Numbered from the stretch's first letter, positions 6,464 to 64,000 are shown. The stretch is 64,000 nucleotides of DNA from an uncultured Dehalococcoidia bacterium (GCA_964423835.1 CAYRGJ010000002.1:104608-168607); one strand, 5' to 3'. Numbers and translations are program-made. Notes: generated by a model not told the origin, from the letters alone.

Positions 6464-6477
6464 TGTCGCACGGGCCG

Positions 6478-45742: not shown

Positions 45743-46123
45743 TTAGCGCTTCTGAAGCTTGTCAGCCTCTTTCACCAGCCACTCCTTGGCATCTTCAGGC
45801 TTATCGAAGAAACCGGCGTGCACGCGCCTGGTAGTGGCGTAGACCTGGGCTGTTGACTGGGAGATACCGGAAAGCCCTATGAACGCCACGCAGAAGCGAG
45901 GATCGCCCTTCACCAAGTCGGCAACCTCCACCGCCTTCTTCACCGTCGCCGGGGTCATCGCCGCGTTGGTGCAATCGACCAGGGCCAGCAATCCGTCCCG
46001 TTCCCTGGCCAACACCTGTTTGGCATCCTCCCAGGCCTCAAGGCACGCCCTTTCGTCTTTGTTGGCTGCATCCATGATCCAGATCGGCTTGCCTTTGTAG
46101 GTTGTCAGCTGGCCGTGTTTCAC
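45743..46123 (-). CDS. SpoIIAA/STAS-like small protein, paralog 5
   Basis: YKGKPIWIMDAAN.., LLALVDCTN.., VAFIGLSG.., PEDAKEWL. GTG at 46123 preceded by GAGGAGGG. Confidence 0.7.
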   Translation of the reverse strand: MKHGQLTTYKGKPIWIMDAANKDERACLEAWEDAKQVLARERDGLLALVDCTNAAMTPATVKKAVEVADLVKGDPRFCVAFIGLSGISQSTAQVYATTRRVHAGFFDKPEDAKEWLVKEADKLQKR

Positions 46124-46197
46124 GTGTGCCCTCCTCGAACCTGCCGAGTATCCCGCCGGCATTATACCAGCCGGCGCAATATCAGTCAGGAGAGAGG

Positions 46198-49100
46198 TCA
46201 GGCATACACTATATGCAACCTGGGCACAGCGCCGCCTTCATACGGCAGGCTGACAAAGCTGGCTCCTGACGAACCGCCCTCGTCCTCCACAAAGATGAGG
46301 ACAGTCCCGTCGGAGTAGGTGTTGGAGTCGACCAACTCCTGTATTAGGGCGGCCAGGTCGGGAGAGTCGCGATAGGCCCAATCGCCGGATTCGCTGGTCC
46401 AGACGCCGGCGGCGGTAGTCCTGGTCCTGCTCCCGTAGTCGGCCGGGCTGGATGGAGCCATTGGATCACCTGAGTCCTCGGCCCGCACCATGAGGGCGGT
46501 GGCATTGTCCCACCGGGCGTTGACCATCTCCAGGCGTGCTTCCAGGATGACCGCATTCTGGGGCAGAGTGATACCGGTGAAACGGAACCAGGCGCCGTAG
46601 AGCTGGCTGTTGTCGGTTCGGGAAAGCTCATCGAAGTACCCCCACGTCGTGGAGAAGTTGTCGGTACCCTCCTCCAGGCTCACCAGGATTTCGCCGCCAG
46701 TTGCCGGCTCCTCGACGGTGATGGTGACGGCCTCGGAGTCGGTCAGCAGGCCATCGGAGACCTCGAACCGGATGTCGGGGAAGACGCCGGCCGAGCCGGG
46801 CGTCCAGGAGAAGGAACCGGTCAGGTCATCAAACGAGGCCCCGTCGGGCAGGTTGGAGGCGGAGAAGGTGAGGTTGTCGCCGTCGGGGTCGCTGGCCGCA
46901 ACGTCGATGGTCAGAAGCTGGTCGACAACCGCCGTCTGGTCGCCGACCGGGTCCAGCACGGGAGGCTGGTTGGCCGGCACCGGCTCCTCGACGGTGATGG
47001 TGATGGCCTCGGAGTCGATCAGCAGGCCGTCCGAGACCTCGAACTGGATGTCGGGGAAGACGCCGGCGGAACCGGGCGTCCAGGAGAACGAGCGTGTGGC
47101 GGGATCAAAGGCAGCCCCGTCAGGCAGGTTGGACGCGGAGAAGGTGAGGTTGTCGCTGTCGGGGTCAGTGGCCGCAACGTCGAAGGTCAGCAGCTGGTCA
47201 ACAATCGCCGTCTGGTCGCCGATCGGGTCCAGCGCGGGGGGCTGGTTGGGAGGCGGAGGCGCTTCATTGACGGTGATGGTAATGACCTCGGAGTCGGTCA
47301 GCAGGCCGTCGGAGACCTCGAACTGGATGTCGGGGAAGACGCCGGCCGAACCGGGCGTCCAGGAGAAGGAACCGGTCAGGGCATCAAACAAGGCCCCGTC
47401 GGGCAGGTTGGAGGCGGAGAAGGTGAGGTTGTCGCCGTCGAGGTCGCTGGCCGCAACGTCGAAGGTCAGAAGCTGGCCCACGACGGCTGTCCTGTCGCCG
47501 ACCGGTTCCAGCACCGGAGGCTGATCGGCGGGCGCTGGCTCCTCGATGGCGTCCAGCACGGGAGGCTGGCTGGCCGGCGTTCCGCTGCCGCCGTACTTGA
47601 TATACAGCCGGGGAATGGAGCCGCTCTCATATGTGAGCGGCACGAACTCCGCCCCGGACGCACTGCCGTTGTTGTCCAGCAGGATCAGGATGGTCCCGCC
47701 GGAGTAGCTGTACGAGTTGACCAGCTCCTGGATGACCGGCGCCAGGTTCGGTGAGTCGTGGTAGGCCCAGTCGCCGAAACCGCTGGTCCAGGCTACGCCG
47801 GCCGATGTGCGCGCCCTGGAGGTGTGATCGGCGGTGCTGGAAGGCGCAGAGGGGTTGGCCGATTTCTCGGCCCGTATATTGAGGATGGTGCCACTGCCCC
47901 AGCTGGCGTGCGCCATCTCCAGGTGCGCCTCCTCGATTACCGCTCCCGGCGGTATGGTAACGTCCGTGAATCGCAGCCAGGCATTGTAGGGCTGGCCGGC
48001 CTCGGACCAGTTGAGCGTGCTGTAGTATCCCCAGGCGCCGGAGAACCCGTCATCGGCGCCCGATGCCAGGCTGACCAGCAGGTCACCGCCGGAAGAGGGC
48101 TCAAAGACGTTGATGGTGATGGCCTCGGAATCGGTCAGCAGGCCGTCGGAGACCTCGAACACGATGTTGGGATAGACGCCGGTAGCAGCCGGCGTCCAGG
48201 AGAAGGAACCGGTCACGGTATCAAACGAGGCCCCGCCGGGCAGGTTGGATGCGGAGAAGGTCAGGCTATCGCCGTCGGGGTCGCTGGCGGCGACATTGAA
48301 GGACAGCTGCTGGCCGACCAGAACCGTCCTGCCACCGATGGCATCCAGCACCGGAGGGCGGTTGGCGGGCGTTCCGCTGCCGCCGTACTTGATGAACAGC
48401 CTGGGGACGGAGCCGCTCTCAAAGGAGCTGCTGACGAAATCCGCCCCGGCCGCGCTGCCGTTGTTGTCCAGCAGGATCAGCATGGTCCCGCCCGAGTAGC
48501 TGTACGTATCTACCAGCTCCTGGATGACCGGCGCCAGGTTCGGAGAATTGTGGTAGGCCCAGTCGCCGAAACCGCTGGTCCAGGCCACGCCGGCCGAGGT
48601 GCGCGCCCTGGAGTTGTGATCGGCGGTGCTGGAAGGCGCAGAGGGGTTGGCCGATTTCTCGGCCCGTATATTGAGGCTGGTACCACTGCCCCAGCTGGTG
48701 TGCACCATCTCCAGGTGCGCCTCCTCGATTACGGCCCCCGGCGGTATGTTCACGTCCGTGAAGCGCAGCCAGGCATTGTAGGGCTGGCCCGCCTGGGACC
48801 AGACAAGCGTGCTGTAGTATCCCCAGGCGCCGGAGAACCCGTCATCCGCGCCCGATGCCAGGCTGACCAGCAGGTCACCGCCGGAGGAGGGCTCAAAGAC
48901 GCTTACGGTGATGGCCTCGGAATCGGTCAGCAGGCCGTCGGAGACCTGGAATACGATGTTGGGATAGACGCCCGTGGCGGCCGGCGTCCAGGAGAAGGAA
49001 CCGGTCACGGTGTCAAACGAGGCCCCTCCCGGCAGGTTGGATGCGGAGAAGGTCAGGCTATCGCCGTCGGGGTCGCTGGCGGTGACATTGAAGGACAGCT

Positions 49101-52100
49101 GCTGGCCGACCAGAACCGTCCTGTCACCGATGGCATCCAGCACCGGAGCCCGGTTGGCCGGCGTTCCGCTGCCGCCGTACTTGATGAACAACCTGGGGAC
49201 GGAGCCGCTCTCAAAGGAGGTGCTGACAAAATCCGCCCCGGCCGCGCTGCCGTTGTTGTCCAGCAGGATCAGGATGGTCCCCCCGGAATAGCTATACGTA
49301 TTCACCAGCTCCTGGATGACCGGCGCCAGGTCCGGCGAGTTGTGGTAGGCCCAGTCGCCGAAACCGCTGGTCCAGGCAGCAGCCGCGGAGGTGCGCACCC
49401 TGGAGGTGTGGTCCGCAGCGCTGGAAGGCGCCGAGGGGCTGGCCGATTTCTCGGCCCGTATATTGAGGCTGGTGCCACTGCCCCAGCTGGTGTGCACCAT
49501 CTCCAGGTGCGCCTCCTCGATTACGGCCCCCGGCGGTATGTTCACGTCCGTGAAGCGCAGCCAGACATTGTAGGGCTGGCCGGCCTGGGACCAGGCGAGC
49601 GTGCTGTAGTACCCCCAGGCGCCGGAGAACCCGTCATCCGCGCCCGATGCCAGGCTGACCAGCATCTCACCGCCGGCTGAAGGCTCATAGACACTGATGG
49701 TGATGGCCTCGGAATCGGTCAGCAGGCCATCGGAGACCTCGAACCGGATGTCGGGATAGACGCCGGTGGCAGCCGGCGTCCAGGAGAAGGAACCAGTCAC
49801 GTTATCCAGCGAGGCCCCTTCCGGCAGGTTCGACGCCGAGAAGGTCAGGTCGTCACCGTTGGGGTCCGTGGCCGCGATATCGAAGGAGAGCTGCTGGCCG
49901 GCTATCGCCGTCTTGTCGCCGATCGGCTGCAGCACCGGAGGCTGATTCGTGGTCGGGTTTGTGCTATACCTGATGTACAGCTGGGGCGGCGAATTCCCTT
50001 CAAACGTGAAGCCGACATGCTCAGCGCTGCTTGAGCTCCCGTTGTTGTCAACAAGAATCTGGATGGATCCTCCCGAGCTGTAGTCAAAGCTGTTGACCAG
50101 CTCCTGAATGACCGCACTGATATCGGGCGACGCATGCCATCCCGAGTCGGAGTAGCCTGAGGGCCAGTCGACCGCCGTCACAGTCCTCACCCTGGACGCG
50201 TGGTCGCTGGTGCTGGCGGGCGCAGACGGGTCCGCCGCCTTCTCCGCCTGTATCTTCAGATGGGCGCCACTGTCCCACCGGTACTGCTGCAGGTTCAAGT
50301 GCGCTTCCAGCACCACGGAACCCTGGGGTACGGTGACATCATTGAAGCGAAACCAGCCGTTATACCACTGGCCGATCTCGTACCAGGCCTGGTCCCGGTA
50401 GTATCCCCAGGCTCCGGAGAAACCGTCGTCCGCTCCGGCTGCTACGGACAGGGTGAGCTCATACTCCTGCCCCGGCTGGGGACTGACCGAAATGGAGACG
50501 TCCTCCCAGTCGGTCATCATGCCATCGGACACCTCAAAGTGGACCACGTAGACGCCTCTGGTGTCCGGCGTCCAGGAAAATGACCGGGATCCGGCATCGA
50601 AGGAAGCCCCTTCAGGCAGGTTCGAAGCTGAGAACAGGAGGCTGTCACCGTCAGGATCGCTGCCCGAGACGGTGAAGCTGATGGGATTGCCGATCGTTGC
50701 GTCCTGGCTGCCGATGGGATCGAGCACCGGGGCCTGATTGGGGCTGACCGGCTGGAACTCGAATGGGGTGCTGGGCACCTCCGCCAGCGAGCCGGCGGAG
50801 CCCGGCGGATACAGGAAGTAGTTGCCGCCCGATTGCACGATGTCATGATTCGCCGAGCTGAATGACCCCGGCGTCTCCGAGAAGGCCAGCCGAAGCGTGT
50901 CTCCTACTGTGGTCTCATTGACCAGGTAGAGGCTGGTTTTGGCCTGAAGGGCCTCATTCTGGCCGGCATTGTCGATCTCCAGGATCATCTGGTCGGGCAG
51001 CCAGCGGGCATCCAGATAGCCGGACCTCGACTCCAGCACCTGCCCCAGCCCGCCGGTGGTCAGCCAGCGATAGAACGGATAGTGTGTGGCCACGTAGTCA
51101 GCCCAGATCACGTAGGCGTCAAAGACCTGGGCCATGGTGACGTCGGTGTACCCGGATGCGGCCAGCATGTCGCTCTCGTCCGGATGTGTGAAGATAACGT
51201 AGGGCGCCCCGCTTTCCATCATGCACCTCAGCATGGCCCAGCAATGGTAGTACTCGTCCGAATCCGGACGGCTGAAAAGGAAGAAGTCTCCCTGCACCCG
51301 GGGGAGGTTGTACATATCTGTGCCCGGCTCCAGGCCGTAGTCTCTGTAGGTCACGGGGTAGGTGATGTCTTCGGCCGGATACGGGTCACCGTCAGCATCA
51401 CGGGCGTTCTCGCTTTCAGTGGATGAATTGTCCGAGCCCTCCTGGCTGGTGCCCGCTTCCGAGACGGCCAGTGCGGCGGCTGAACCGCCGGAGGCCTCCT
51501 CTTCCTTGAAGTGGACGCCAACGTACCTGACGTCCGTCCTGGCATCAAGCGACTGGTACCCATAGGCGCCGATGCACTCCATGGGGGCCACATACGAGAC
51601 GATCTGAGGGAGCTGCATGCCGTAGCTGCTCTGGAGGCGGTCCCGGAGCTGCTGAGTCGCCGCTATCATGGCATCAACCTCGGCGTCTACCCCCGCTGCG
51701 TCATCCCAGTAGGCCTGGTCCAGCGGGTAGTGCGTTTGGCCGCAGTGCCAGCCGATCTCGTGCCCATCCTTGAGGAACTGGTAGACCCCATTCACGGATT
51801 CCGGATACCACCAGAAGTCGCTGGTGGAGCCTGAATACGAGAAGGCCACAAAGATCGAAGACTTGAGGTTGTACTCTCTGAGCAGCCTGGAGAAGTTCCC
51901 GATGAAGTCATAATGCAGTTGCTGCAATTGCTCCGGGGTGTAGTAGCTCCTGGTGCAATCATCGACTTCCACCACTCCGGCATTGACCGGAGAGCTCAGG
52001 CCGACCGGCATTGAGTAGAGAATGGCCTGCATGAGGATGCCCTGGAGATAGAGGGTGCCCGGCAGGTTGGTGTTGAAGAAAACCGTCTTGCCATTGCCAT

Positions 52101-52722
52101 ACCGGCTTACCCATATGGCGGGATTCCCGTAGGCCGTGTCGTGGGCAACCACGACCGCGCTTTCGGATACGGCATGGTCGAACAGCAGCATGCCGGCATC
52201 GGGTATGGTCTCCCCGGCATAGGCAAAGGTAAACTCGTCTCTCTCTATGAAGATCCCTTCCGAGGTCACATACTGCGTTCCCAGGGTAGTTATGCCGAAC
52301 ATGGCTGCCAGGTGGGTGTTCACGTAATCGGGCTGAAGAGCCACGGCCCCGGCGCCCATGCTGACCACATTGACGATGGCATCGGAGTTTGAGGCGTCAA
52401 GGGCCTCGCCAGGCACGTTGATCAGTATGGTGGAGTACAGCGGGCTGCCGGCATCATCCAGGAATGAGTAGTGCTGGCCGGCGGAGATGTCCAGCGCTTC
52501 CCATGGTATCCGGTTCGTGTCGAGCAGCCGCCGCACGCCCTGAAAAGGCGGGGACTCTGTGTCATACAGGGGATTCGACTCATCGACAATTATGCCGGCC
52601 TTGATGGGTATGCTGATGCCATCAGCTCCTTCTGATGGACGATCTACAAGGAGAGCCGTCGACAGTGCGAGCGTGATCCACAGGATAGCCATCATCATCC
52701 GGAGCCACTTCATCTGACACAT
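46198..52722 (-). CDS. giant secreted protein: signal peptide, ~620-aa polysaccharide-deacetylase-like region, 7 He_PIG/cadherin-like Ig domains, 5 copies of an unclassified ~170-aa module
   Basis: 2174-aa uninterrupted ORF. MKWLRMMMAILWITLALSTALLV signal. VEVDDC ... GWHCGQTHYP in the N-terminal region. Repeats of PVLDxIGD...DPDGDxLTFSASNLPxGAxFD...FSWTP alternate with GADDGFSGAWGYY...LRFTDV.IPPGAVIEEAHLEM... The true start may be ATG at 52713. Confidence 0.9.
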   Translation of the reverse strand: MCQMKWLRMMMAILWITLALSTALLVDRPSEGADGISIPIKAGIIVDESNPLYDTESPPFQGVRRLLDTNRIPWEALDISAGQHYSFLDDAGSPLYSTILINVPGEALDASNSDAIVNVVSMGAGAVALQPDYVNTHLAAMFGITTLGTQYVTSEGIFIERDEFTFAYAGETIPDAGMLLFDHAVSESAVVVAHDTAYGNPAIWVSRYGNGKTVFFNTNLPGTLYLQGILMQAILYSMPVGLSSPVNAGVVEVDDCTRSYYTPEQLQQLHYDFIGNFSRLLREYNLKSSIFVAFSYSGSTSDFWWYPESVNGVYQFLKDGHEIGWHCGQTHYPLDQAYWDDAAGVDAEVDAMIAATQQLRDRLQSSYGMQLPQIVSYVAPMECIGAYGYQSLDARTDVRYVGVHFKEEEASGGSAAALAVSEAGTSQEGSDNSSTESENARDADGDPYPAEDITYPVTYRDYGLEPGTDMYNLPRVQGDFFLFSRPDSDEYYHCWAMLRCMMESGAPYVIFTHPDESDMLAASGYTDVTMAQVFDAYVIWADYVATHYPFYRWLTTGGLGQVLESRSGYLDARWLPDQMILEIDNAGQNEALQAKTSLYLVNETTVGDTLRLAFSETPGSFSSANHDIVQSGGNYFLYPPGSAGSLAEVPSTPFEFQPVSPNQAPVLDPIGSQDATIGNPISFTVSGSDPDGDSLLFSASNLPEGASFDAGSRSFSWTPDTRGVYVVHFEVSDGMMTDWEDVSISVSPQPGQEYELTLSVAAGADDGFSGAWGYYRDQAWYEIGQWYNGWFRFNDVTVPQGSVVLEAHLNLQQYRWDSGAHLKIQAEKAADPSAPASTSDHASRVRTVTAVDWPSGYSDSGWHASPDISAVIQELVNSFDYSSGGSIQILVDNNGSSSSAEHVGFTFEGNSPPQLYIRYSTNPTTNQPPVLQPIGDKTAIAGQQLSFDIAATDPNGDDLTFSASNLPEGASLDNVTGSFSWTPAATGVYPDIRFEVSDGLLTDSEAITISVYEPSAGGEMLVSLASGADDGFSGAWGYYSTLAWSQAGQPYNVWLRFTDVNIPPGAVIEEAHLEMVHTSWGSGTSLNIRAEKSASPSAPSSAADHTSRVRTSAAAAWTSGFGDWAYHNSPDLAPVIQELVNTYSYSGGTILILLDNNGSAAGADFVSTSFESGSVPRLFIKYGGSGTPANRAPVLDAIGDRTVLVGQQLSFNVTASDPDGDSLTFSASNLPGGASFDTVTGSFSWTPAATGVYPNIVFQVSDGLLTDSEAITVSVFEPSSGGDLLVSLASGADDGFSGAWGYYSTLVWSQAGQPYNAWLRFTDVNIPPGAVIEEAHLEMVHTSWGSGTSLNIRAEKSANPSAPSSTADHNSRARTSAGVAWTSGFGDWAYHNSPNLAPVIQELVDTYSYSGGTMLILLDNNGSAAGADFVSSSFESGSVPRLFIKYGGSGTPANRPPVLDAIGGRTVLVGQQLSFNVAASDPDGDSLTFSASNLPGGASFDTVTGSFSWTPAATGVYPNIVFEVSDGLLTDSEAITINVFEPSSGGDLLVSLASGADDGFSGAWGYYSTLNWSEAGQPYNAWLRFTDVTIPPGAVIEEAHLEMAHASWGSGTILNIRAEKSANPSAPSSTADHTSRARTSAGVAWTSGFGDWAYHDSPNLAPVIQELVNSYSYSGGTILILLDNNGSASGAEFVPLTYESGSIPRLYIKYGGSGTPASQPPVLDAIEEPAPADQPPVLEPVGDRTAVVGQLLTFDVAASDLDGDNLTFSASNLPDGALFDALTGSFSWTPGSAGVFPDIQFEVSDGLLTDSEVITITVNEAPPPPNQPPALDPIGDQTAIVDQLLTFDVAATDPDSDNLTFSASNLPDGAAFDPATRSFSWTPGSAGVFPDIQFEVSDGLLIDSEAITITVEEPVPANQPPVLDPVGDQTAVVDQLLTIDVAASDPDGDNLTFSASNLPDGASFDDLTGSFSWTPGSAGVFPDIRFEVSDGLLTDSEAVTITVEEPATGGEILVSLEEGTDNFSTTWGYFDELSRTDNSQLYGAWFRFTGITLPQNAVILEARLEMVNARWDNATALMVRAEDSGDPMAPSSPADYGSRTRTTAAGVWTSESGDWAYRDSPDLAALIQELVDSNTYSDGTVLIFVEDEGGSSGASFVSLPYEGGAVPRLHIVYA
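46693..47571. repeat. three consecutive Ig-like (He_PIG-type) domain repeats of ~276-324 bp
   Basis: Protein repeats NQPPxLDPxGDQTAxVDQLLTxDVAAxDPDxDNLTFSASNLPDGAxFD..FSWTPGSAGVFPDIxFEVSDGLL occur three times. Confidence 0.8.
47572..49947. repeat. 3 x 792-bp near-identical tandem repeat (one Ig-like domain plus one ~170-aa module per unit) inside the giant gene
   Basis: Unit boundaries at 47572, 48364 and 49156 were derived from the protein repeats. Long stretches at a 792-nt offset are almost identical by eye (for example 47749, 48541 and 49333). Confidence 0.9.
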
Positions 52723-53103
52723 CCTTCCTTTGCTGGTGCCGCATCCAGCGCCGCTGCCGGCAAACGAGACCCGCCGGCGGGCCGCATATTCAAACTATGG
52801 ACTGGCATGGGGCAACAGGGGTACTAGTGTGGCACACAGTTCGGCCGGGCAGACTTACGTATTTCCGGCTAGTCACTACCTAGGCCGGGGCGGTCCATCG
52901 CCAATGCCACTGTGACTGATTTGTGAGATACGGGTTGGTACTGGACCTGCAGACCAGCCGGGAGCGGGCTTTGTGAGGGATCTGTGAGGAAAACTAAGTA
53001 TTCTACCAATTGAACTGGACGGGCCTTTTTTGGGACAATTTAGGCTGGTGTGCGTACGTAGTACATATTCCCGGCACGCCGAAATCAAGTGTGGAGGTAA
53101 AGT

Positions 53104-54786
53104 ATGATGAGACGTTTTTGTAACTTTTTTCGGATTGGCCCGGCGCTCCTGGTAATCCTTGTCCTCGCCGTCCTCAGCCCGCTCCTCCTCCCGGCCAGTC
53201 AGTCATTGGCCGCTCCGGTGCCGGTCAAAGGGATGTGCATGTTCTCTTACGGGGGGCACAACTCCGCCTATGATTCGCGTCTCCTGGCCATTGTGCCAGA
53301 GTACTTGATAGACAACACAGCGCACGGGTTCTGGGGAGAGTACACCGGCAGCTATGGCAGCACGTCCCTTCTGCAGAACGTGTCCCGCATGCAGGCGGCC
53401 GGCATGAAGGTCATCGGTTACACCAGCTGCGGCTATGAGGGAAGGGGAAGCGGGGGAGGCCAGCCCCTCTCCATGTTCACCCTGGCTTCCGTGAAGAAGC
53501 AGATCACGAACATGGCCCAGCTTGACGGCGTCAACGGCGTGTTCATTGACGAGGTTGATGCCTACCCCAGCGCCACTCAGAAGCAGTACCTGAAGGAGCT
53601 GTCGACGCTGGCTCACAGCCTGGGCATAGTCATCTGGGGGAATACCGGAGTTAACAGCTTCGACGCCTGGTTCTTTGGCGATGGCGGATTCGACTTCGTG
53701 CACTCCACTGAGCAGTGGACGGGGCAGGCGTTGACCGCGACACAGAAGACCTACGGGTCGAGGATCAGCGTCGCCGGCTTCAAGTCCACCTACGCGGCGG
53801 CTGACGCGGTGAGACTTACGCAGGACGCCTGGAGCAAGGGGATCCGCTTCTGCTACGTGAACAACGCCGAGTATCAGACGATCGCCCCCTGGTTCGAGCA
53901 GTATGCCAACAGCGTGAGAGGCGCGGCCGCTCCACCGGCCCCCGCCCCCGTCAACGGGGCGCCCGTTCTCGGCGCCATCGGCTCGAAGACGGTCACCCAG
54001 GGGCAGCTCCTCCAGTTCCGCCTGACCGCCACCGATCCCGACGGCAACTCGCTGACCTATTCGGCATCGAACCTGCCCGCCGGCGCCACCTTCACCGCCT
54101 CCACGGCCACTTTTTCGTGGCGTCCGGCCTCGGCTGGAACCCACAGCGGGATCACCTTCAGGGTCAGTGATGGAAGCCTGAGCGACTCTGAGACCATGAC
54201 CATAACCGTGGTCCCGGCAGATACGGGGAATCCGGCTCCCACTCCCACTCCCACCACCGGCACCACGTTCGAGATAACCGCCAGGGTCACCACCGGCGCC
54301 GATGACGGCTTTGCCGGGAGTTGGGGCTTCTACAGGAGCCTCAGCTGGTATGAGACCGGCAATCCCGGCCAGCCGTACGGCTCCTGGTATCGCTTCGCCG
54401 GCGTCAAAATCCCTGCCGGCGCCAAGATCGTGCAGGCCCATCTGGTGACCACCCAATCGAAGTGGACCAGCGGCACCCACCTCAAGATACGCGCCGAGAG
54501 GTCGGCGTCTCCGCTGGCGCCGACCAGCACTGCCGGTCTGGCCTCGAAGACCAGGACCCTGGCCGGAGCAGACTGGGACTCGGGGTACAGCGATCGACGG
54601 GCGCATCAGTCTCCGGATATCACTGCCGTCATCCAGGAGCTGGTGGGCAGTTACAGCTACTCGAGCGGCGGGACCATCCAGATACTGGTCGATAACGATG
54701 GCAGCGTTTCTGGCAGCGAGCATGTTGGAGCCACCTTCGAAGGCAGTTCAGCCCCTGTGCTCTACATTAAGTACCAGCTGCCCTGA
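53104..54786 (+). CDS. secreted Spherulin-4/GH135-GH114-like TIM-barrel domain, one Ig-like domain and one copy of the ~170-aa module
   Basis: Signal peptide FRIGPALLVILVLAVLSPLLLPASQSLA. VIGYTSCGYEG, VNGVFIDEVDAYP, VIWGNTGV, FDFVHSTEQW. Then APVLGAIGSKTV..DPDGNSLTYSASNLPAGATF, then GADDGFAGSWGFY..YRFAGVKIPAGAKIVQAHL. Confidence 0.8.
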   Translation: MMRRFCNFFRIGPALLVILVLAVLSPLLLPASQSLAAPVPVKGMCMFSYGGHNSAYDSRLLAIVPEYLIDNTAHGFWGEYTGSYGSTSLLQNVSRMQAAGMKVIGYTSCGYEGRGSGGGQPLSMFTLASVKKQITNMAQLDGVNGVFIDEVDAYPSATQKQYLKELSTLAHSLGIVIWGNTGVNSFDAWFFGDGGFDFVHSTEQWTGQALTATQKTYGSRISVAGFKSTYAAADAVRLTQDAWSKGIRFCYVNNAEYQTIAPWFEQYANSVRGAAAPPAPAPVNGAPVLGAIGSKTVTQGQLLQFRLTATDPDGNSLTYSASNLPAGATFTASTATFSWRPASAGTHSGITFRVSDGSLSDSETMTITVVPADTGNPAPTPTPTTGTTFEITARVTTGADDGFAGSWGFYRSLSWYETGNPGQPYGSWYRFAGVKIPAGAKIVQAHLVTTQSKWTSGTHLKIRAERSASPLAPTSTAGLASKTRTLAGADWDSGYSDRRAHQSPDITAVIQELVGSYSYSSGGTIQILVDNDGSVSGSEHVGATFEGSSAPVLYIKYQLP

Positions 54787-55004: not shown

Positions 55005-56774
55005 ATGTGTGGCATCGTGGGGTACGTGGGTCATCGTCCGGCACAGCCGATCCTGTTCGATTGCCTGGCCAAACTCGAATACCGCGGCTATGACTCGTCA
55101 GGCATCGCCATTCGGGGTAGCGGCATCAGAGTGTCGAAAGACAAGCTCCGGGTGGGAGTCCTTCAGGAGAGCACCCCCCAGCTCAGCGGCCAGATGGGGA
55201 TCGGGCACACCCGGTGGGCCACGCACGGAGCGCCTTCCCGGATGAACGCCCACCCGCACCTCGATTGCACCGGCAGGATAGCAGTGGCGCACAACGGAGT
55301 CATCACCAACTACCTGCAGCTGAAACAGATGCTGATGGCCGACGGGCACGTCTTCACGTCCGAGACGGACACTGAGGTCATACCTCATCTCATAGAGAAG
55401 TACTGGGATGGACAGGGTGACATGACGGCTGCGGTAGAGGCCGCCGTGGGGAGGCTGGAGGGATCGTACGCGTTCGTGGTCCTCTCCGAGCCCGAGGACA
55501 GGCTGCTCGTGGCACGCAAGGACAGCCCTCTCGTGATCGGCGTTGGCGACGGGGAGAACCTGATCGCGTCGGATGTCCCGGCCATAATGGGGTATACCGA
55601 CCGCATGATCTGTCTTGAGAACGGGGATGTGGGCGTCATCAGCGACAGCGGAGTCAGGGTGATGCAGAACGGCCGGGACGTGGACCGGCGCATGGAAGTG
55701 GTCAGCTGGAACAAGGGCAGCAACGGCAAGTGCGGCTGCGAGCACTACATGCTAAAGGAGATCCGGGAGCAGCCGGGGGTAATCTCGAGCACGCTGTCTC
55801 AGGGGTTGCCGTCGCCGGTAGCCTCGATTTTCAGTCAGGGCAAGCCCGACGTGCTCATCCTGGCCTGCGGCACGTCATATCATGCTGGCCTGGTGGGCAA
55901 GTACATCATGGAGGAGCTGCTGGGGACCCGGGTCAACACGGAGCTGGCCTCCGAGTTCAACTACCGCAGAGAAGTCCCGCCAGCGGATGTGGCCATTGTC
56001 ATCAGCCAGTCCGGCGAGACGGCTGATGCCCTGGCCTGCATGAAGAGGCTCACCTCCGCCGGCATCAACACGCTGGTCATCACCAACGTCGCCCACAGCT
56101 CGGCGCGCCGGGCAGCCTCGTGCTCGGTCTGCACCTCCGCCGGTCCGGAAGTGAGCGTGGCCGCCACGAAGAGCTTCATGGCCCAGCTGATCACCTTCTA
56201 TCAGATCGCCCTGGCTTCAACCAGCGTGGATGCCTCTACCCGGAACCGTCTGTACCGGGAACTCGAGAGCCTCCCTTCGGTGGTGCAGGGAATGCTGGAC
56301 AACGAGGACCTCATGATCGGGTGCGCCCGGCAGCTTTCCCAGTGCAGCAACGTCTTCTTCATCGGGAGAGGCATAAACCTGCCCATAGCCTACGAGGGGG
56401 CCCTCAAGCTCAAGGAGATCTCCTACATCCATGCTGAGGGTTGCGCGGCCGGCGAGTTGAAGCACGGCCCCCTGGCGCTCATGGGCGAATCGACCCCGAT
56501 CGTGGCCCTGCTCACCAGGGACAGGACCTATGATGTCATGAAGGCCAATATCAAGGAAGCGAAGACCCGGGGGTCCACCACGTTTGTCATAACGGACGAG
56601 AACGTGGACCGGGACGAAGGCGACCAGGCCATAAGGATAGAGAAGGTCGATCCCCTGCTCAGCCCCGTCCTCAATACCGTGGCGCTTCAGCTTCTGGCGT
56701 ATCACGCCGCCAGAGTGAGAGGATGCCCAATAGATTTCCCGAGGAACCTGGCCAAGAGCGTGACGGTAGAGTAG
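55005..56774 (+). CDS. glmS: glutamine--fructose-6-phosphate aminotransferase
   Basis: MCGIVGYVG.. (N-terminal Cys nucleophile), two SIS domains, and C-terminal ..LAKSVTVE. Confidence 0.95.
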   Translation: MCGIVGYVGHRPAQPILFDCLAKLEYRGYDSSGIAIRGSGIRVSKDKLRVGVLQESTPQLSGQMGIGHTRWATHGAPSRMNAHPHLDCTGRIAVAHNGVITNYLQLKQMLMADGHVFTSETDTEVIPHLIEKYWDGQGDMTAAVEAAVGRLEGSYAFVVLSEPEDRLLVARKDSPLVIGVGDGENLIASDVPAIMGYTDRMICLENGDVGVISDSGVRVMQNGRDVDRRMEVVSWNKGSNGKCGCEHYMLKEIREQPGVISSTLSQGLPSPVASIFSQGKPDVLILACGTSYHAGLVGKYIMEELLGTRVNTELASEFNYRREVPPADVAIVISQSGETADALACMKRLTSAGINTLVITNVAHSSARRAASCSVCTSAGPEVSVAATKSFMAQLITFYQIALASTSVDASTRNRLYRELESLPSVVQGMLDNEDLMIGCARQLSQCSNVFFIGRGINLPIAYEGALKLKEISYIHAEGCAAGELKHGPLALMGESTPIVALLTRDRTYDVMKANIKEAKTRGSTTFVITDENVDRDEGDQAIRIEKVDPLLSPVLNTVALQLLAYHAARVRGCPIDFPRNLAKSVTVE

Positions 56775-56827
56775 GTTGCGATCGGGCTCCGGCGGGCAGC
56801 GCGTCGGGCGCGGGCAAGTTGGCTCAT

Positions 56828-57493
56828 ATGCCGATATCAATTCTGCTGGTCGAAGAGCATGCCATGGTCAGGAAGGGGGCCAGGTGCCTTCTCGAAGCCT
56901 TCCCCGAGTACGAGGTGGTGGGCGAGGCCAGCCATGGGTTGGATGCCGTCAGACTGATAACCGAGCTGCAGCCCGACCTGGTGGTGACGGAGCTGCAGCT
57001 GAAGGACCTGGGCGGGTCTGAGCTGGTGCGGCGGATGGGAGAGCTCTCACCTCAGACCAGGATTATTGCGCTCACCCAGTACGACAGCGAGGAGCATGTG
57101 CTCGATGCCCTGCGCGCCGGCGTGAGAGGCTACATTCTCAAGGGAGACAGCCTGGATGAGATAACCAAGGCCATAGAGCAGGTAATGGCCGGCCACTGCT
57201 ATCTCAGCCCCTCCATCCTCTGCCTGGCCATCAATGCGCTGCTGCAGAGGAAGACTGATGGCGTTCAAGACAGCTACGCCACCCTCACCACCAGGGAACG
57301 TGAGGTGCTCATGCTCTCGGCCCAGGGTCTCAGCAACGCCGAGATCGCCGAGAAGCTCTACATCAGCAAGCGCACGGTGGACGTGCACCGCGCCCATCTG
57401 CTGCGCAAGCTGGGATTGAGGACTCAACGCAACCAGCTGCAGGACTACGCCATCAAGGCGGGCATCCTGCCGCCAGAGTGGGAAGAGGAGTGA
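56828..57493 (+). CDS. NarL/FixJ (LuxR-HTH) response regulator with Glu at the phospho-acceptor position
   Basis: ILLVEEH.., PDLVVTELQLKDLGG (canonical NarL has ..LLDLNMPG..), ALTQY, ILKGD. C-terminal LTTREREVLMLSAQGLSNAEIAEKLYISKRTVDVHR. Confidence 0.85.
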   Translation: MPISILLVEEHAMVRKGARCLLEAFPEYEVVGEASHGLDAVRLITELQPDLVVTELQLKDLGGSELVRRMGELSPQTRIIALTQYDSEEHVLDALRAGVRGYILKGDSLDEITKAIEQVMAGHCYLSPSILCLAINALLQRKTDGVQDSYATLTTREREVLMLSAQGLSNAEIAEKLYISKRTVDVHRAHLLRKLGLRTQRNQLQDYAIKAGILPPEWEEE

Positions 57494-57507: not shown

Positions 57508-58443
57508 TCAGGGCCTTCCGCCGGGCACAGCCGCTGACCTGTAGTAGCTGGCGGCCAGGCGTATCCCCTGAGCAAAGCTCACCCTGGATGACCATCCCAG
57601 CTCCCCGGAGGCCTTCCGGCAATCCAGCGACATGTGAGTGATCTCGCCGGGGCGCATCAGCTCGTATCTGGGAAGACCCCGGAAGTCCAGCTCGGCGCCC
57701 AGGGCATCGAACACAGCCTGGTCGGGAGTCTGTTCCGGGGTGCCGATGTTGAAGACCCCCTGGCAGGCGCTCTCGATGGCGGTCAGATTGGCTCTGGCCA
57801 CGTCCTCCACATAGACATAGGACCTGGTCTTGTCCCCCGCGCCGAAGATGGTCGGCTGCCGGCCACAGAGCATCTCGTGGGCGAACAGCGGCACCACGCC
57901 AGCCTCGCCATTCGACCTCTGCCGTGGCCCGAAGACATTCGAATAGCGCAGCGCCACGAACGCCAGCCCGTACAGGGACTGGTACACCTGCAGGTAGAGC
58001 TCCACGGCGTACTTGGATACGCCATAGGGTGACAGCGGGCATATCGGGTGCTTCTCGGCCACCGGCAACTGCTGCGGGTTGCCGTAGATGGCGCACGAGG
58101 AGGCGTAGACCACCTTCCTGATGCCCGCCTTCACGCCGCAGCCCAGGACATTGAGGCTGCCCCTGGTGTTCACCTCCGCGTCATACTGGGGGTCCTCTAT
58201 GGACCTGGTCACGCTGGTTTGGGCCGCCTGGTGACAGATGACCTCGGGCCTTTCCGCCGCCAGCACCCGCCCCAGCTCGGCATCGCCGATACTCAGTTGA
58301 TGGAACGCGGCGGCCGGGTGGATGTTGTCCCTGGAGCCGCCCGAGAGATCGTCCACCACGACCACCTCGTGCCCCCGCAGCAGGGCCAGATCCACTATGT
58401 GAGAGCCAATGAAGCCTGCGCCGCCAGTCACCAGTATCTTCAA
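57508..58443 (-). CDS. NAD-dependent sugar-nucleotide epimerase (GalE family)
   Basis: (M)KILVTGGAGFIGSH.., SPYGVSK (YxxxK). TTG at 58443 sits 7 nt after AAGGAG. Confidence 0.85.
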   Translation of the reverse strand: MKILVTGGAGFIGSHIVDLALLRGHEVVVVDDLSGGSRDNIHPAAAFHQLSIGDAELGRVLAAERPEVICHQAAQTSVTRSIEDPQYDAEVNTRGSLNVLGCGVKAGIRKVVYASSCAIYGNPQQLPVAEKHPICPLSPYGVSKYAVELYLQVYQSLYGLAFVALRYSNVFGPRQRSNGEAGVVPLFAHEMLCGRQPTIFGAGDKTRSYVYVEDVARANLTAIESACQGVFNIGTPEQTPDQAVFDALGAELDFRGLPRYELMRPGEITHMSLDCRKASGELGWSSRVSFAQGIRLAASYYRSAAVPGGRP

Positions 58444-58476
58444 GTTCAATCTCCTTCACTCAGGCCCGGAGGCCCT

Positions 58477-59202
58477 TCACGCTCCAGGAACGCTGTGCGC
58501 GGCGGCGCCCCGGCCGATGGCGGAGACGTAGGCCTCGAACCAGAGGGGCAGGGACAGATAGGAGTTGGTGACGTAGCAGTAGCGCAACCCTTCCTCCCAG
58601 GCTCTGAGGGTGAGCCTCACCGCATCCTCCAGAGTATGCCTGGCCCCCAGGCCGGTGACGCTGATCCGCCGGCCGAACTTCCTCTGCGTCTCTGTGAGAG
58701 GCTGCCCGCGCCATTGCTCCGTCGAGTGCATGAAGTCGAAACCGCCGCCGGTGAAAAACCAGGCGTCGAAGTCATCTTGTCCCACGTTTCCCCAGGCCAC
58801 CAGCTGGTGCTCATGGGCCACACGGGTGAGCTCCTTCAGGTAGGCCTTTGCCCCAGGGTCCGGAAAGGCGCTGCATTCGTCGATGAAGACGCCGCTGACC
58901 CCGTCGTTCTTCGCCATGGAGACCACCAGCCGGCGGTTGGTTTCCAGGGAATACCACTGGGGGCCTATGCTGCCGCCGCTTCTGGTCCCTTCATAGCCCG
59001 AAGTGATGTACCCCACGGGTTGCACCCCCTCGCCCTTGAAAGCATCCAGCTCCCGGCTGGACCATCCGGCGCTGCGCCCGTTGACGTTCCCCCAGAGCCC
59101 GTGGGCCGTGTTGCAGACCAGGTATTCAGGAAGGCACGCCAGTATGCGCGCCGAGGCGCGCGCGCTTGTCTCTCCGTAGTAGACGAGGCTGAGCTTCACC
59201 AC
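58477..59202 (-). CDS. Spherulin-4/GH135-GH114-like TIM-barrel protein without a signal peptide (paralog of residues ~40-280 of 53104-54786)
   Basis: LPEYLVCNTAHGLWG, VGYITSGYEG, VSGVFIDECSAFP, VAWGNVG, FDFMHSTEQW, colinear with the secreted paralog. Confidence 0.6.
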   Translation of the reverse strand: MVKLSLVYYGETSARASARILACLPEYLVCNTAHGLWGNVNGRSAGWSSRELDAFKGEGVQPVGYITSGYEGTRSGGSIGPQWYSLETNRRLVVSMAKNDGVSGVFIDECSAFPDPGAKAYLKELTRVAHEHQLVAWGNVGQDDFDAWFFTGGGFDFMHSTEQWRGQPLTETQRKFGRRISVTGLGARHTLEDAVRLTLRAWEEGLRYCYVTNSYLSLPLWFEAYVSAIGRGAAAHSVPGA

Positions 59203-59238: not shown

Positions 59239-60084
59239 CTACCGGGCCACCACCGGCTCGTCCAGTATGTGCTCGAATCCGGCTATCACATCGGGTTCAT
59301 CCATGGACCTCATCTTCTCCTCCATCCTCTCCCCCATCCGGAGACCGATGAGGCGGACCCTGGTGCTGCCATTCCCGTATTTCTGCAGCGCCTCTCCGAT
59401 CAGGTCCTTCAGCAGGACGGCATCACCGTGAGGAGTGAAGTAGACCTTGCCGTTTTCACCGCGCTCCAGCACGGCCATATAGAGCTTCACCACTCCATCG
59501 ACAGAGGTGTAGAACCGCCTCATGTCCGGGTGGGTGACAGTGATCTCGTTGAATTCCCGGATCTGGTTTACCCAGATATCCATCACGCTGCCGGTAGATC
59601 CCAGGATGTTGCCGGACCGGATGACCATGAATCGGGGGCCCTTGGACTTGGAAGCGCGTTGCTTCACCAGTCTCTCGCAGACCAGCTTGGTGGCGCCGTA
59701 GCAGTTGCAGGGCTCCACCGCCTTATCCGTGGACATCAGGATGAAGGTTTCCCCCTCGAAGGCCCGGAGCATGTTGAGCGTGCCCAGGACGTTAATGGTG
59801 GCGCCCTCCTCGCATTCCTCCTCGCACAGGTCCACCCGCTTCATCGCGGCCAGGTGAATCACGGTGTCCTTGCCCTTGAGGGCGCCCCTGACAAAGGTCT
59901 CATCCCGGATGTCGCCTACACTGAGCCTGAGCGCCGGACTGGAAACCTCGCACTGCAGCTTCGATATGCCGCCCTCGCTGCGAGAGAGAGACGTCACCTC
60001 CACATGGGGGTACCGCCTCAGTAGCTCCTTCAACAGATGCCTTCCCACAAAACCGCTGCCGCCCGTAACCAGAATCCTCTTCAT
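59239..60084 (-). CDS. PseB/FlaA1/CapD-type UDP-sugar 4,6-dehydratase-like SDR (short form)
   Basis: ILVTGGSGFVG.., MSTDKAVEPCNCYGATK, IRSGNILGSTGSV, THPDMRRFY, IGLRMGERMEEKM. The ATG overlaps the upstream stop codon (ATGA). Confidence 0.8.
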   Translation of the reverse strand: MKRILVTGGSGFVGRHLLKELLRRYPHVEVTSLSRSEGGISKLQCEVSSPALRLSVGDIRDETFVRGALKGKDTVIHLAAMKRVDLCEEECEEGATINVLGTLNMLRAFEGETFILMSTDKAVEPCNCYGATKLVCERLVKQRASKSKGPRFMVIRSGNILGSTGSVMDIWVNQIREFNEITVTHPDMRRFYTSVDGVVKLYMAVLERGENGKVYFTPHGDAVLLKDLIGEALQKYGNGSTRVRLIGLRMGERMEEKMRSMDEPDVIAGFEHILDEPVVAR

Positions 60085-61484
60085 TTCTGCTTCTCCTCCT
60101 CCTCTACCTCAGGACTCTTAACCCTCTCCTCCCTGGCCAGCTTGAGAGAGCTCATCGTTGCATAGTGGAAGATGTGATACTCAAAGGAGTGCAGAGTCCG
60201 CAGGGTGACCAGCAGACTCAGCAGGCCCGCGGCAAGGCTTCCAGCGAGGAAGCCAAGCGCGGCAAACCACGTGCTGAACCTCAGGAGCGGGATGGCCCCC
60301 ACTTCAGCCACGCAAACCATCAGCACGGAAAGGGTCGGAATCCGCATGTTGCCGAAAAGGGACAGAACCATGTAGTTGAAGATGATGGTGCTGAAGATGA
60401 TGCTCCCCGCGCCGACCGTCAGCAGGACCTTCATCACGGTGCCCGTGTCGCCGGGGAACAGCAGCCTGGCCAGGCCAACTGCGCCGGCCAGAAATGCCAG
60501 GCCGAACAGAAGCGTCATAGCCAGGTCTCTCCAGTACAGCTTCTTGTATTCATTGGCTGTTCGCCGGATATCGGAGAACCTCCCCTGGTACATCGCCTTG
60601 ACCAGGGGGGCGGCCCTCGCTTCGAAGTGGATCGTCGTTCCCAGACTGAACAGGGGGACAAGGCCCAGGAAGGCTCCGAAGGTATAGGGGCTGCTTATGA
60701 CCAGGCCGCCGCCTGACCGGCTGCCCATCCACAGCCAGACGATCAGCTTGTCTGCGAACACCGCGATAGCGTACAGGATGGGGAACACCGAGGCCCATGG
60801 GTTTCGGCGCAGCAGACTGATTATCGACGACTGCAGGCCCGCCGCCGGCTCCGTCCGGTCGAAGGCTTCCCGCAGGGTGAAAACGGCGCTGGCCAGCAGG
60901 GTCAGGGCACCCGCGGTGTAGCCCAGGAGGGTCAGCGAAGGGTCCAGGCGGTGCAAGGCGTAGGTCAGCAGGAACTGGACCGAGTAGCCCGAGACGAAGA
61001 CCACAGCGAAGCTCACGTGCTGCCTGGTCGCGGCGTAAGCGCCGGCGACCACCCAGACAAGGGATAGAATGAAGAGCAGCGCGGCAAAGAACCCGAAATC
61101 GATGGCCGAGAGACCGACCATGCCCACCAGGAAGTGATACAGCGCGGCGCTGACGGCAATGGCATAGCCGGCGGAGTACGCGGCGCCGACCCTGAACACC
61201 CTGTCCAGGGCGTCCCGGCCGGATGAGCCGTCGCCGATGATGCCCAGGGTGACCGGAGAGATGCCGGCCGTGCCCAGCAGGCTGAGAATCACAGCGGCCA
61301 TCACCGTTATGGTGAAGAGGTTCAGCGCCTGCGAGTCAAAGCGCGTCAGCGTGATGAAAAGCAGCACCGTTATGGCGAAAGTCAGAATGGCCGGCGCTGT
61401 GGCCACGATGGCCCGGGCCGCAGGTGACAGGGCGCGCTGGGGCCGCGGGGCCGGGAGGCTGTTAGTTATTAGCGGAGCGCTCAT
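60081..61484 (-). CDS. PelG-like polytopic membrane protein
   Basis: 467 aa with about 12 hydrophobic segments. VFADKLIVWLW and a C-terminal LHSFEYHIF resemble my recollection of PelG (..WADKFIFW.., ..LEFETF..). It is overlapped by the 3' end of the PelF-like gene. Confidence 0.6.
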   Translation of the reverse strand: MSAPLITNSLPAPRPQRALSPAARAIVATAPAILTFAITVLLFITLTRFDSQALNLFTITVMAAVILSLLGTAGISPVTLGIIGDGSSGRDALDRVFRVGAAYSAGYAIAVSAALYHFLVGMVGLSAIDFGFFAALLFILSLVWVVAGAYAATRQHVSFAVVFVSGYSVQFLLTYALHRLDPSLTLLGYTAGALTLLASAVFTLREAFDRTEPAAGLQSSIISLLRRNPWASVFPILYAIAVFADKLIVWLWMGSRSGGGLVISSPYTFGAFLGLVPLFSLGTTIHFEARAAPLVKAMYQGRFSDIRRTANEYKKLYWRDLAMTLLFGLAFLAGAVGLARLLFPGDTGTVMKVLLTVGAGSIIFSTIIFNYMVLSLFGNMRIPTLSVLMVCVAEVGAIPLLRFSTWFAALGFLAGSLAAGLLSLLVTLRTLHSFEYHIFHYATMSSLKLAREERVKSPEVEEEEKQK

Positions 61485-62859: not shown

Positions 62860-63005
62860 CTCATCCCCTGATGCAGCGCCCGAGATGGGGCGCATCAATC
62901 GGCTGACTCCATTCTAGGTCGAGGGGAATTCCGGGGAATACGTGCACAATCCACAATGGGCCGGCGCGGAATGCGTAATTGCCGGTAGTTAGTACCTAGG
63001 TGTGA

Positions 63006-63109: not shown

Positions 63110-63811
63110 TCAAAGCGCCAGATTGCCCGGCAGGCCGGGGACCAGGCTGGCCCCATCCCCGGTCAAGTCCGGAATGAGCCCGCGTTCGACGGCGAAGCGG
63201 CCCAGCCTGATGTGAGGCGTACGCAGCCCCAGCTTCCGTATCATGTTGGTACGATGGAGCTCGACGGTGCGCCGGCTTATGCCCAGGCGCGCTGCGATGT
63301 CCTTGTTTGTATAGCCCTCGGCAGCCAGCCTCAGGATCTCGATCTCCCGCGGCGTGAGGCTGTCATAAGGATCCTTCTTCTTCACAGGCCCGTTCTGAAC
63401 GTAGATATCCACGGCCAGGTCCGCCAGCGGGCCTGACAGGTAGTGGTGCCCGGCCAGCACCGCCCTGGCTGCGGCAATGAGGTCCTGGGCCTCGCCGCCC
63501 TTGAGCACAAAGGCCATGGCCCCGGCCGACATGGCCTCGTGTACATACTGCTCATGATCATACATGGAGAAGACAATCACCTTGCTGCAGACGGGCGGGC
63601 GCGTCACCTGCCTGGTTACCTCGAAGCCGCTGATGTTGCTCAGCATCAGGTCGACCACCATGATATCCGGATGCAGGCTCTCCGCCATCCGAATGCCCTC
63701 CAGGCCTTCTCCGGTCTCACCCACCACCTTGAAATCGCTCTGCGTCTCCAGCAGCTTCCTCACTCCATGTCTGACAATGGCATGATCATCGATCACCATA
63801 ATGGAAATCAC
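63110..63811 (-). CDS. NarL/FixJ (LuxR-HTH) response regulator, canonical receiver
   Basis: IMVIDDH.., DIMVVDLMLSNISG, VFSMY, VLKG. C-terminal LTPREIEILRLAAEGYTNKDIAARLGISRRTVELHR. GTG at 63811 is 7 nt after GGAGGAGG. Confidence 0.85.
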   Translation of the reverse strand: MISIMVIDDHAIVRHGVRKLLETQSDFKVVGETGEGLEGIRMAESLHPDIMVVDLMLSNISGFEVTRQVTRPPVCSKVIVFSMYDHEQYVHEAMSAGAMAFVLKGGEAQDLIAAARAVLAGHHYLSGPLADLAVDIYVQNGPVKKKDPYDSLTPREIEILRLAAEGYTNKDIAARLGISRRTVELHRTNMIRKLGLRTPHIRLGRFAVERGLIPDLTGDGASLVPGLPGNLAL

Positions 63812-64000
63812 GGCCGATCCTCCTCCCCCTTGGCAAACCACCCCCAAGAGGCTGCTGACCCAGTCCCTTACTCGGTACGAAGGGCTGCAGTACTTATGGT
63901 AGCCGCTTTGTCAGGCTACAGTAATACGTAAGAGGACTAGGTTGCTCCCTGCGCGAGCTACTTACCGTCAGATCAGTATGTTTGCTTAGTGGAAATTACT

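Follow-up and report, generated by a model that had tools for sequence, protein, structure and literature searches.

A predicted PelA_DA-type de-N-acetylase with a long tail of Ig-like and CBM96-like modules in an uncultured Dehalococcoidia bacterium

The Dehalococcoidia are known mainly for dehalogenation and marine oligotrophy, and they are monoderm, surface layer (S-layer)-bearing bacteria. In a 64,000-nucleotide (nt) stretch of DNA from an uncultured member of this group (GCA_964423835.1 CAYRGJ010000002.1:104608-168607, hereafter the window), one gene encodes a giant protein of 2174 amino acids (aa), in which a deacetylase-like head is followed by immunoglobulin (Ig)-like He_PIG domains (PIG) that alternate with a ~170-aa module, here called X. 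What kind of enzyme is the head, and what would such a tail do for it? An earlier sequence-only reading had proposed a PelA/Agd3-like enzyme modifying an exopolysaccharide and tethered to a very long binding or spacer array. This proposal is supported by a Pfam DUF2194 match, a profile match to a solved deacetylase and the presence of PelF and PelG in the same locus (see below). We infer that the giant protein is probably an extracytoplasmic de-N-acetylase of the PelA_DA type (DUF2194, similar to carbohydrate esterase (CE) family CE26), which would tailor the N-acetylgalactosamine (GalNAc)-type, Pel-like polymer of the adjacent PelF/PelG, while its Ig-like spacers and predicted glycan-binding modules would attach it to this polymer or to the envelope of the cell. 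Coordinates of all features are listed in Table 1.

The head (aa ~34-661) matches DUF2194 (PF09960) with 38.1 bits against a cut-off of 30.4 (aa 189-409 on profile positions 193-427 of 582), and its relative L001 matches the same profile with 58.3 bits over positions 42-528. In a profile search of PDB sequences at E<=1, the only solved structure reached was 9ZAU, the PelA_DA of Bacillus cereus ATCC 10987. The single head sequence matched it at E=0.0099 and a four-sequence profile (head plus three relatives) at E=3.6e-9, with both the alpha/beta/alpha and the esterase domains covered. Judged by sequence, the head is a distant homolog of PelA_DA (DUF2194; CE26 plus carbohydrate-binding module (CBM) family CBM114). 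[quoted passage not shown] DUF2194 had earlier been likened to glycoside hydrolase (GH) family GH42 oligomerization domains (PMC7890745). Word-index searches with the single head sequence and with the four-sequence profile returned the identical three relatives, and a metagenome scan for relatives found none. The head relatives with organism names (P0002 and L001 to L004) are all from Dehalococcoidia, which by itself would place the source as a probable high-G+C member of this class.

Three other families were considered for the head and rejected. For Agd3 (CE18), the PDB search at E<=1 gave 9ZAU only and not 6NWZ. For PgaB (CE4), there was no match to PF01522 (Polysacc_deac_1) at E<=1 in the whole protein, and Pseudomonas PelA (CE21) gave no sequence match. 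The sequence-only reading of a deacetylase of the PelA/Agd3 kind is supported, but the family is that of PelA_DA and not that of Agd3 or PgaB; a domain search gave DUF2194, which this reading had named among the families to check, and He_PIG above threshold, and CE4 (PF01522) and CE18 (Agd3) without a match. Foldseek with a low-confidence model of the head listed the NDST1 deacetylase, GH42/ThuA-type alpha/beta/alpha domains and PelA 9CGY (rank 26), a result that is compatible with the assignment and carries little weight. 9ZAU was absent among the listed Foldseek matches of this model (PDB entries released up to 8 April 2026).

Candidate counterparts of the PelA_DA catalytic motifs could be located in the head. 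Their conservation was counted over eight DUF2194 subfamily sequences. Profile alignment places Asp254 and Asp255 of VEVDDC (aa 251-256) on D262 and D263 of PelA_DA (catalytic base and zinc ligand), opposite IDD of 9ZAU. His326 and His331 of GWHCGQTHYP (aa 324-333) fall on the zinc ligands H350 and H354, with the shared flanks EIG..H and H.PL; Pro380 falls on the MT3 proline P405; and His513-Pro-Asp-Glu516 falls on H488-P-D-D491, the catalytic acid and its activator (FTHPDE versus FVHPDD). The Asp-Asp pair is kept in seven of the eight sequences, as is HPDE (HPPDE in L003B), and alignment A1 of four sequences shows no variation at H513 and E516. NLPR, which contains Arg475, is invariant in all eight and lies between MT3 and MT5, where R458 of PelA_DA is expected. 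Both motifs from which the candidate Asp / His-x4-His metal triad was read, VEVDDC and GWHCGQTHYP, are present, and D255, H326 and H331 align with the PelA_DA zinc ligands, with one extra residue between the two histidines. PgaB also uses two histidines five residues apart. By analogy with PelA_DA, the metal would be bound by Asp255, His326 and His331 and its water activated by Asp254, a base positioned by Arg475; the leaving amine would receive its proton from His513, itself activated by Glu516. One subfamily member, the 808-aa JGI protein P0003, has NA instead of Asp-Asp and N and Q instead of the two MT2 histidines, and retains NLPR and HPDE. From its sequence it is a probable pseudo-deacetylase, and the joint loss of the Asp-Asp pair and both histidines is expected if they form a co-dependent metal site and act as a functional unit.

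The giant protein and PelA_DA share the predicted domain order, an N-terminal hydrophobic segment and pelF and pelG alongside, and their Asp-Asp, two-His, Pro and His-Pro-Asp-acid positions align. The sequence similarity between PelA_DA and the head is very low. PelA_DA is a 610-aa protein without the tail of seven He_PIG and five X domains, and it has HxxxH where the giant protein has H-x4-H. The giant protein also carries a 49-aa acidic Ser/Glu-rich insert, already noticed in the sequence-only reading, with 13 Asp/Glu versus 2 Lys/Arg; in relatives this loop is variable or absent. Agd3 of Aspergillus fumigatus (CE18 plus CBM87, 6NWZ; PMC7229062) is a three-domain deacetylase of a GalNAc-containing exopolysaccharide, as predicted for the head studied here. 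An activating Arg late in the sequence and the lack of an MT4 Asp are reported for both PelA_DA and Agd3, and the Agd3 cluster, like the locus studied here, includes a Spherulin4/Sph3-type hydrolase and a UDP-hexose epimerase. Unlike the giant protein, Agd3 is fungal, belongs to another CAZy family and lacks an Ig/CBM96-like tail. Pseudomonas PelA (GH166 plus CE21, 9CGY) has the same pathway role, the de-N-acetylation of Pel, and was found as a fold match at rank 26 from the low-confidence model only. It is periplasmic and bifunctional with a fused hydrolase domain, whereas here the hydrolase is a separate gene. The hydrolases of this locus are GH135-like; the GH166-type hydrolase domain of PelA has been likened to a separate B. 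cereus hydrolase gene (PMC7890745).

A Pel-like locus ends with the giant gene, and the genes below 46 kb are unrelated. PelF and PelG are shared with the Gram-positive pelDEA_DAFG locus. Because PelF, an epimerase closest to GalE, GlmS, an Sph3-like hydrolase and the PelA_DA-like deacetylase occur together, the polymer is expected to be GalNAc-rich and partly de-N-acetylated, like Pel or fungal galactosaminogalactan (GAG). LuxR-type regulators stand at both flanks, and the locus may be regulated by two-component signaling and not by cyclic di-GMP. The locus of Dehalogenimonas sp. TCA1 (L003) is syntenic, with pelG, Polysacc_synt_2, response regulator, glmS, GH135-like genes and epimerase. It encodes two tandem DUF2194 genes (2536..6927 and 8810..12169), one with a CarbopepD_reg/I-set/MBG/YDG tail and the other with an fn3-like N-terminal extension and a C-terminal transmembrane anchor. 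No relevant publication on Pel in Chloroflexi or in Dehalococcoidia came up in a literature search.

The tail (~1500 residues) comprises seven He_PIG and five X domains as assembled. Seven stretches match Pfam He_PIG (PF05345) with 257.3 bits in total against a cut-off of 24, and a motif scan together with a hidden Markov model (HMM) of X gave the string PIG-X-PIG-X-PIG-X-PIG-X-PIG-PIG-PIG-X, in which the terminal X runs to the stop codon. Both the domain string and the Ig-like nature of PIG had been read correctly from the sequence alone. The PIG-X unit shows a strict 264-aa period (repeats at aa 665, 929, 1193 and 1457). It might be argued that the number or order of these units is an assembly artifact of collapse or expansion or, less likely, that head and tail form a chimera. 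Units 2 to 4 do share 87-93% DNA identity over 792 nt, and N-runs are found within the repeat arrays of L001 (~12.7 kb) and L002 (~2.9 kb) in the metagenome-assembled genome (MAG) CAYYWI01, so such arrays are hard to assemble. However, the longest exact repeat is 90 nt (5-nt-step scan) and the frame is intact. Because the synonymous divergence (dS) among units 2 to 4 is 0.18-0.31 and dN/dS is 0.27-0.32, the units are diverged copies under purifying selection and not identical, collapsible ones. The G+C content is ~65% across the window, where real genes are marked by third-position G+C; this value (GC3) is 0.73-0.86 along the ORF, within the range of neighboring genes and without an abrupt break at the head-tail junction. 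The same 2171-aa protein is also present on a 186-kb NCBI contig, although an exact look-up of this product in a gene-position index gave no entry. An artifact is improbable on these grounds. The DUF2194-to-He_PIG junction is kept in P0001, P0002, L001 and L002, and L002 (an uncultured Dehalococcoidia MAG) continues as DUF2194-PIG-X-PIG up to a run of N. With the junction conserved in four independent sequences, the head-tail fusion is genuine as far as sequence comparison can tell, and the exact number of units is given as assembled.

The heads of L002, L001 (MAG CAYYWI01), P0001 and the Dehalogenimonas L003 show 41-64% identity (tblastn) and the same motifs. Apart from that of L002, their tails differ from the giant's (Big_3_5, YDG/MBG, fn3-like), and no complete relative reaches five X copies. 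The sequence-only reading knew of no such architecture for Pel or GAG deacetylases. It does recur, as DUF2194-PIG-X-PIG in L002, and further relatives have Ig-type stalks of other kinds; the five-X tail is found in no complete relative. P0001, P0003 and L003B have a C-terminal transmembrane helix and basic tail after an Ig-type stalk; the giant protein is without such a helix and ends in X5. In the proposed arrangement, the Ig domains would be a stalk and the C-terminal element an anchor, a membrane helix in the relatives and the predicted glycan-binding X modules here. The tail would probably keep the enzyme away from the membrane and attached, through many contacts, to a glycan of the envelope or to the polymer, whether nascent or already deposited. 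In Tepidiforma, a cultivated member of the Dehalococcoidia, cryo-tomography showed a space of ~40 nm between membrane and S-layer (PMC10284905), which makes a long stalk plausible.

The X module had been described as an unknown ~170-aa module. No Pfam match was found, as stated below, but the fold is assignable. An AlphaFold2 model of X2 (55-sequence alignment) is a beta-sandwich with two short helices, with a predicted local distance difference test (pLDDT) of 97.3 and a predicted template modeling score (pTM) of 0.92. Its best PDB neighbors are 8WAB, a chondroitin-sulfate-binding CBM of a chondroitinase (template modeling (TM) score 0.70, E=6e-7), the pro-BMP9 arm domain, the alginate-binding CBM96 7VBO (TM 0.56) and CBM6. 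The best viral neighbors, at TM 0.64-0.68, are a phage pectate lyase and CBM96-domain proteins, including one from phage SecTim467. DNRLRE-like domains were the basis on which CBM96 was defined (PMC9971899). CBM96/DNRLRE (7VBO; PMC9971899) and 8WAB share the beta-sandwich fold with X and, like X, occur in tandem on large secreted enzymes; X differs in falling below, or having no match at, the curated PF24517 and NF033679 thresholds. Based on the model, X fits best as a deep branch, not yet catalogued, within the CBM96/DNRLRE fold group, and it is most likely a glycan-binding module. An hhalign comparison of X with one CBM96 sequence aligned a local 'RF..IP.GA.I..AHL' stretch only, at 2.6% probability, which is not significant, and X had no PHROG match. 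Profile matches of X to PDB sequences (NHL-like designer propellers and antibody light chains) were discarded as spurious products of flanking alignment segments.

X is widespread. A word-index search found 54 relatives, mostly stand-alone proteins of 190-290 aa. When the search with an HMM was exhaustive, 10,690 representative proteins matched at E<=1e-3, of which 3,142 reach E<=1e-10; many are giants with three to eight copies. Many of the small X proteins begin at domain residue 1, without a signal peptide. One stand-alone X protein (P0045), encoded at 8001..8723 of an ENA metagenome contig (L005), belongs to a phage structural module (SU10-type capsid, Gp80); a beta-helix gene immediately precedes its gene, and that of a 1091-aa protein follows. 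Among the closest X-bearing proteins are an ortholog of the hydrolase next to the giant gene (Spherulin4, Ig, two X), a CE4 deacetylase, a protein with a bona fide CBM96 and also S8 and M10 proteases.

The PIG-X tag of the giant protein recurs on that neighboring hydrolase (53104..54786), where X forms the extreme C-terminus; the sequence-only reading had not noticed this. The six X domains detected in the window by the X HMM are all in these two genes. The GH135-like hydrolase would be addressed by the tag to the same place as the deacetylase. A bolder proposal is that X is an unrecognized, very large CBM family that here recognizes the organism's own Pel-like GalNAc/galactosamine (GalN) polymer or an envelope glycan, that PIG-X is a shared address tag bringing deacetylase and hydrolase together, and that the polyanionic giant protein also acts as a matrix scaffold cross-linking the cationic de-N-acetylated product. 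We regard this as possible but doubtful. The whole giant protein has a net charge of -193 and an isoelectric point (pI) of about 4.05, each module being acidic. Unlike the giant protein, the hydrolase and its X are neutral, so acidity is not intrinsic to X. An electrostatic partnership of the acidic giant protein with the cationic product is possible.

A number of observations weigh against the assignment as a PelA_DA-type enzyme held by glycan-binding modules. With regard to the head, MT2 has one extra residue (HCGxxH, that is H-x4-H, versus HxxxH in PelA_DA), and this spacing is kept in seven of the eight subfamily members. R475 was placed by order and conservation only, since HMMER left this stretch unaligned to 9ZAU. 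The AlphaFold2 model of aa 33-661 is poor (pLDDT 50.9, pTM 0.38; alignment of only four sequences), and the metal site could not be superimposed. The polymer is deduced from gene content only, and PelD and PelE, which belong to the Gram-positive locus, had no Pfam match in 30 likely genes of the window (all in 37979-63847 plus ten larger ones in 19263-37689), which ends 1.1 kb past pelF. With regard to the tail, X1, X2 and X5 had no Pfam match, CBM96 PF24517 included, even at E<=10; NCBIfam DNRLRE_dom (NF033679) matched X5 only, below threshold (16 bits against a cut-off of 34, E=0.0095, profile positions 10-161 of 164). Since S8 and M10 proteases carry X as well, the Pel-like polymer is not necessarily its ligand.

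Could the head then be something other than a Pel-type de-N-acetylase? The altered MT2 spacing might have made it a dead or modified, lectin-like binder, or it might deacetylate something else, for example chitin-like material or a glycan of the envelope. Non-catalytic versions of the subfamily exist, as the loss of metal ligands in P0003 indicates, and the pairwise match to PelA_DA is low (E 0.0099). Yet HCGxxH is conserved together with DD, NLPR and HPDE in seven of the eight members, which argues for selection on a working site, and the gene lies in a PelF/PelG locus with precursor-supply genes. A head of this other kind is improbable in our view.

The tail could also be mainly a structural or adhesive fiber, stalk or matrix scaffold, with X as a protein-protein or S-layer-type module, the acidic protein as a polyanionic scaffold or adhesin, and the enzyme head secondary. 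S-layer proteins and archaeal disaggregatase contain DNRLRE-type domains too, there without an assigned function (PMC9971899). X, besides its presence on the S8/M10 proteases, stands beside arrays of Flg_new_2 and Ig domains of the sort that surface proteins typically have; all modules of the giant protein are acidic; and the relatives rely on plain Ig stalks with a transmembrane anchor. Against this, X is structurally closest to two experimentally characterized CBMs and to phage proteins directed at glycans, GH135-like and CE4 enzymes are among the nearest proteins that bear X, the head retains its catalytic residues, and the neutral X of the hydrolase separates acidity from the module. A mainly structural role was judged rather unlikely, and we keep the deacetylase anchored by predicted glycan-binding modules as the favored reading.

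The ORF at 46198..52722 (-) is one open frame without interruption, as the sequence-only reading had stated, and it encodes 2174 aa when counted from the first ATG. The Shine-Dalgarno-like AAGGAAGG (region 52713..52745) abuts this first ATG and lies 9 nt upstream of Met4. A database record (P0058, an NCBI singleton) is the identical protein beginning at Met4 (2171 aa, 100% identity over 2171 residues). Because of this spacing and the start of the recorded copy, translation probably starts at Met4 (52713) and gives a 2171-aa product. The segment at aa 6-27 is the sole hydrophobic segment of the giant protein. The signal peptide proposed earlier is one of two ways to read it, since it fits a Sec signal peptide as well as a signal anchor that stays uncleaved. 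The gene is divergent from the hydrolase gene at 53104 with a spacer of 381 bp, also as first read, and this neighbor is Spherulin4/GH135-like with a signal peptide. On the other side, a 139-aa ORF without a family match (45743..46162, -) begins 35 nt past the stop codon of the giant gene, with a sigma-70-like promoter match (46189..46161) between the two. A further large surface-type protein of 770 aa with fn3/Pur_ac_phosph_N-like repeats and PEGA is encoded at 32264..34576 (-), 12 kb from the giant gene and outside the pel locus.

Table 1. Positions of the giant gene, its domains and motifs, and the other genes of the Pel-like locus (window coordinates).
Feature	Position (nt)	Strand	Basis
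Giant gene, whole ORF, 2174 aa from first ATG	46198..52722	-	ORF scan; likely start Met4 at 52713 (2171 aa)
N-terminal hydrophobic segment, aa 6-27	52642..52707	-	Hydrophobicity; AxA-type sites just before first strand in relatives
Alpha/beta/alpha domain, putative equivalent of PelA_DA CBM114, aa 34-245	51988..52623	-	Boundaries inferred from 9ZAU alignment; low-confidence model with alternating strands and helices
Predicted carbohydrate-esterase domain (DUF2194 core, CE26-like), aa 246-565	51028..51987	-	Pfam, 9ZAU profile alignment and motifs
MT1 Asp254-Asp255 (VEVDDC), predicted catalytic base and metal ligand	51958..51963	-	9ZAU profile alignment; PMC13254593
MT2 His326..His331 (HCGQTH), predicted metal ligands, H-x4-H	51730..51747	-	9ZAU profile alignment
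MT3 Pro380 (YVAPM)	51583..51585	-	Aligned with YVPPS of 9ZAU
Acidic Ser/Glu-rich insert, aa 404-452, loop between MT3 and NLPR Arg	51367..51513	-	Alignment and composition
Arg475 in NLPR, candidate base-coordinating Arg	51298..51300	-	Order and conservation only; PMC13254593
MT5 His513-Pro-Asp-Glu516, predicted catalytic acid and activating carboxylate	51175..51186	-	9ZAU alignment
Beta-rich domain, putative equivalent of PelA_DA C-terminal beta-sandwich, aa 566-661	50740..51027	-	9ZAU comparison and low-confidence model
He_PIG 1, aa 662-751	50470..50739	-	Pfam and motif scan
X1, CBM96/DNRLRE-like beta-sandwich, aa 752-920	49963..50469	-	Motif scan and X HMM
He_PIG 2, aa 926-1015	49678..49947	-	Pfam and motif scan
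X2, copy modeled, aa 1016-1184	49171..49677	-	X HMM, AlphaFold2 and Foldseek
He_PIG 3, aa 1190-1279	48886..49155	-	Pfam and motif scan
X3, aa 1280-1448	48379..48885	-	Motif scan and X HMM
He_PIG 4, aa 1454-1543	48094..48363	-	Pfam and motif scan
X4, aa 1544-1712	47587..48093	-	Motif scan and X HMM
He_PIG 5, 6 and 7 in tandem, aa 1733-2007	46702..47526	-	Pfam and motif scan
X5, extreme C-terminus, aa 2008-2174; only copy with weak DNRLRE_dom match	46201..46701	-	X HMM and NCBIfam
Divergent neighbor: signal peptide, Spherulin4/GH135-like (aa ~40-275), He_PIG (aa 286-369), C-terminal X (aa 388-559)	53104..54786	+	Pfam and X HMM
glmS	55005..56774	+	Family match
LuxR-type response regulator	56723..57493	+	Family match
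NAD-dependent sugar epimerase/dehydratase-family protein	57508..58449	-	Closest to GalE, below cut-off
Short GH135/Spherulin4-like ORF, 241 aa, without PIG-X tag	58477..59202	-	Related to two genes of Dehalogenimonas locus
Polysacc_synt_2 dehydratase/epimerase	59239..60084	-	Family match
pelG	60081..61484	-	PF16933 77.9 bits
pelF	61462..62898	-	NCBIfam equivalog NF038011 156 bits against cut-off 100; also DUF3492 and Glycos_transf_1
Second LuxR-type response regulator, beyond pelF	63110..63847	-	Family match

The finding extends a known system; it does not overturn current understanding and is not a new kind of system. The family was defined in 2026 from a compact Bacillus enzyme (PMC13254593), and a PelA_DA-type head is now found in Dehalococcoidia, in a conserved Pel/GAG-like locus and on a modular tail of 1500 residues. 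The main points of interest are the X family, the shared tag and the H-x4-H metal motif. X is abundant, confidently folded and probably glycan-binding, with no Pfam or NCBIfam model, and a curated model could annotate thousands of proteins; phage tail modules contain it as well. For the cell surface of these bacteria, tailoring enzymes may be positioned by an Ig stalk together with either a membrane anchor or a glycan-binding module, and one address tag may serve two enzymes of the same pathway.

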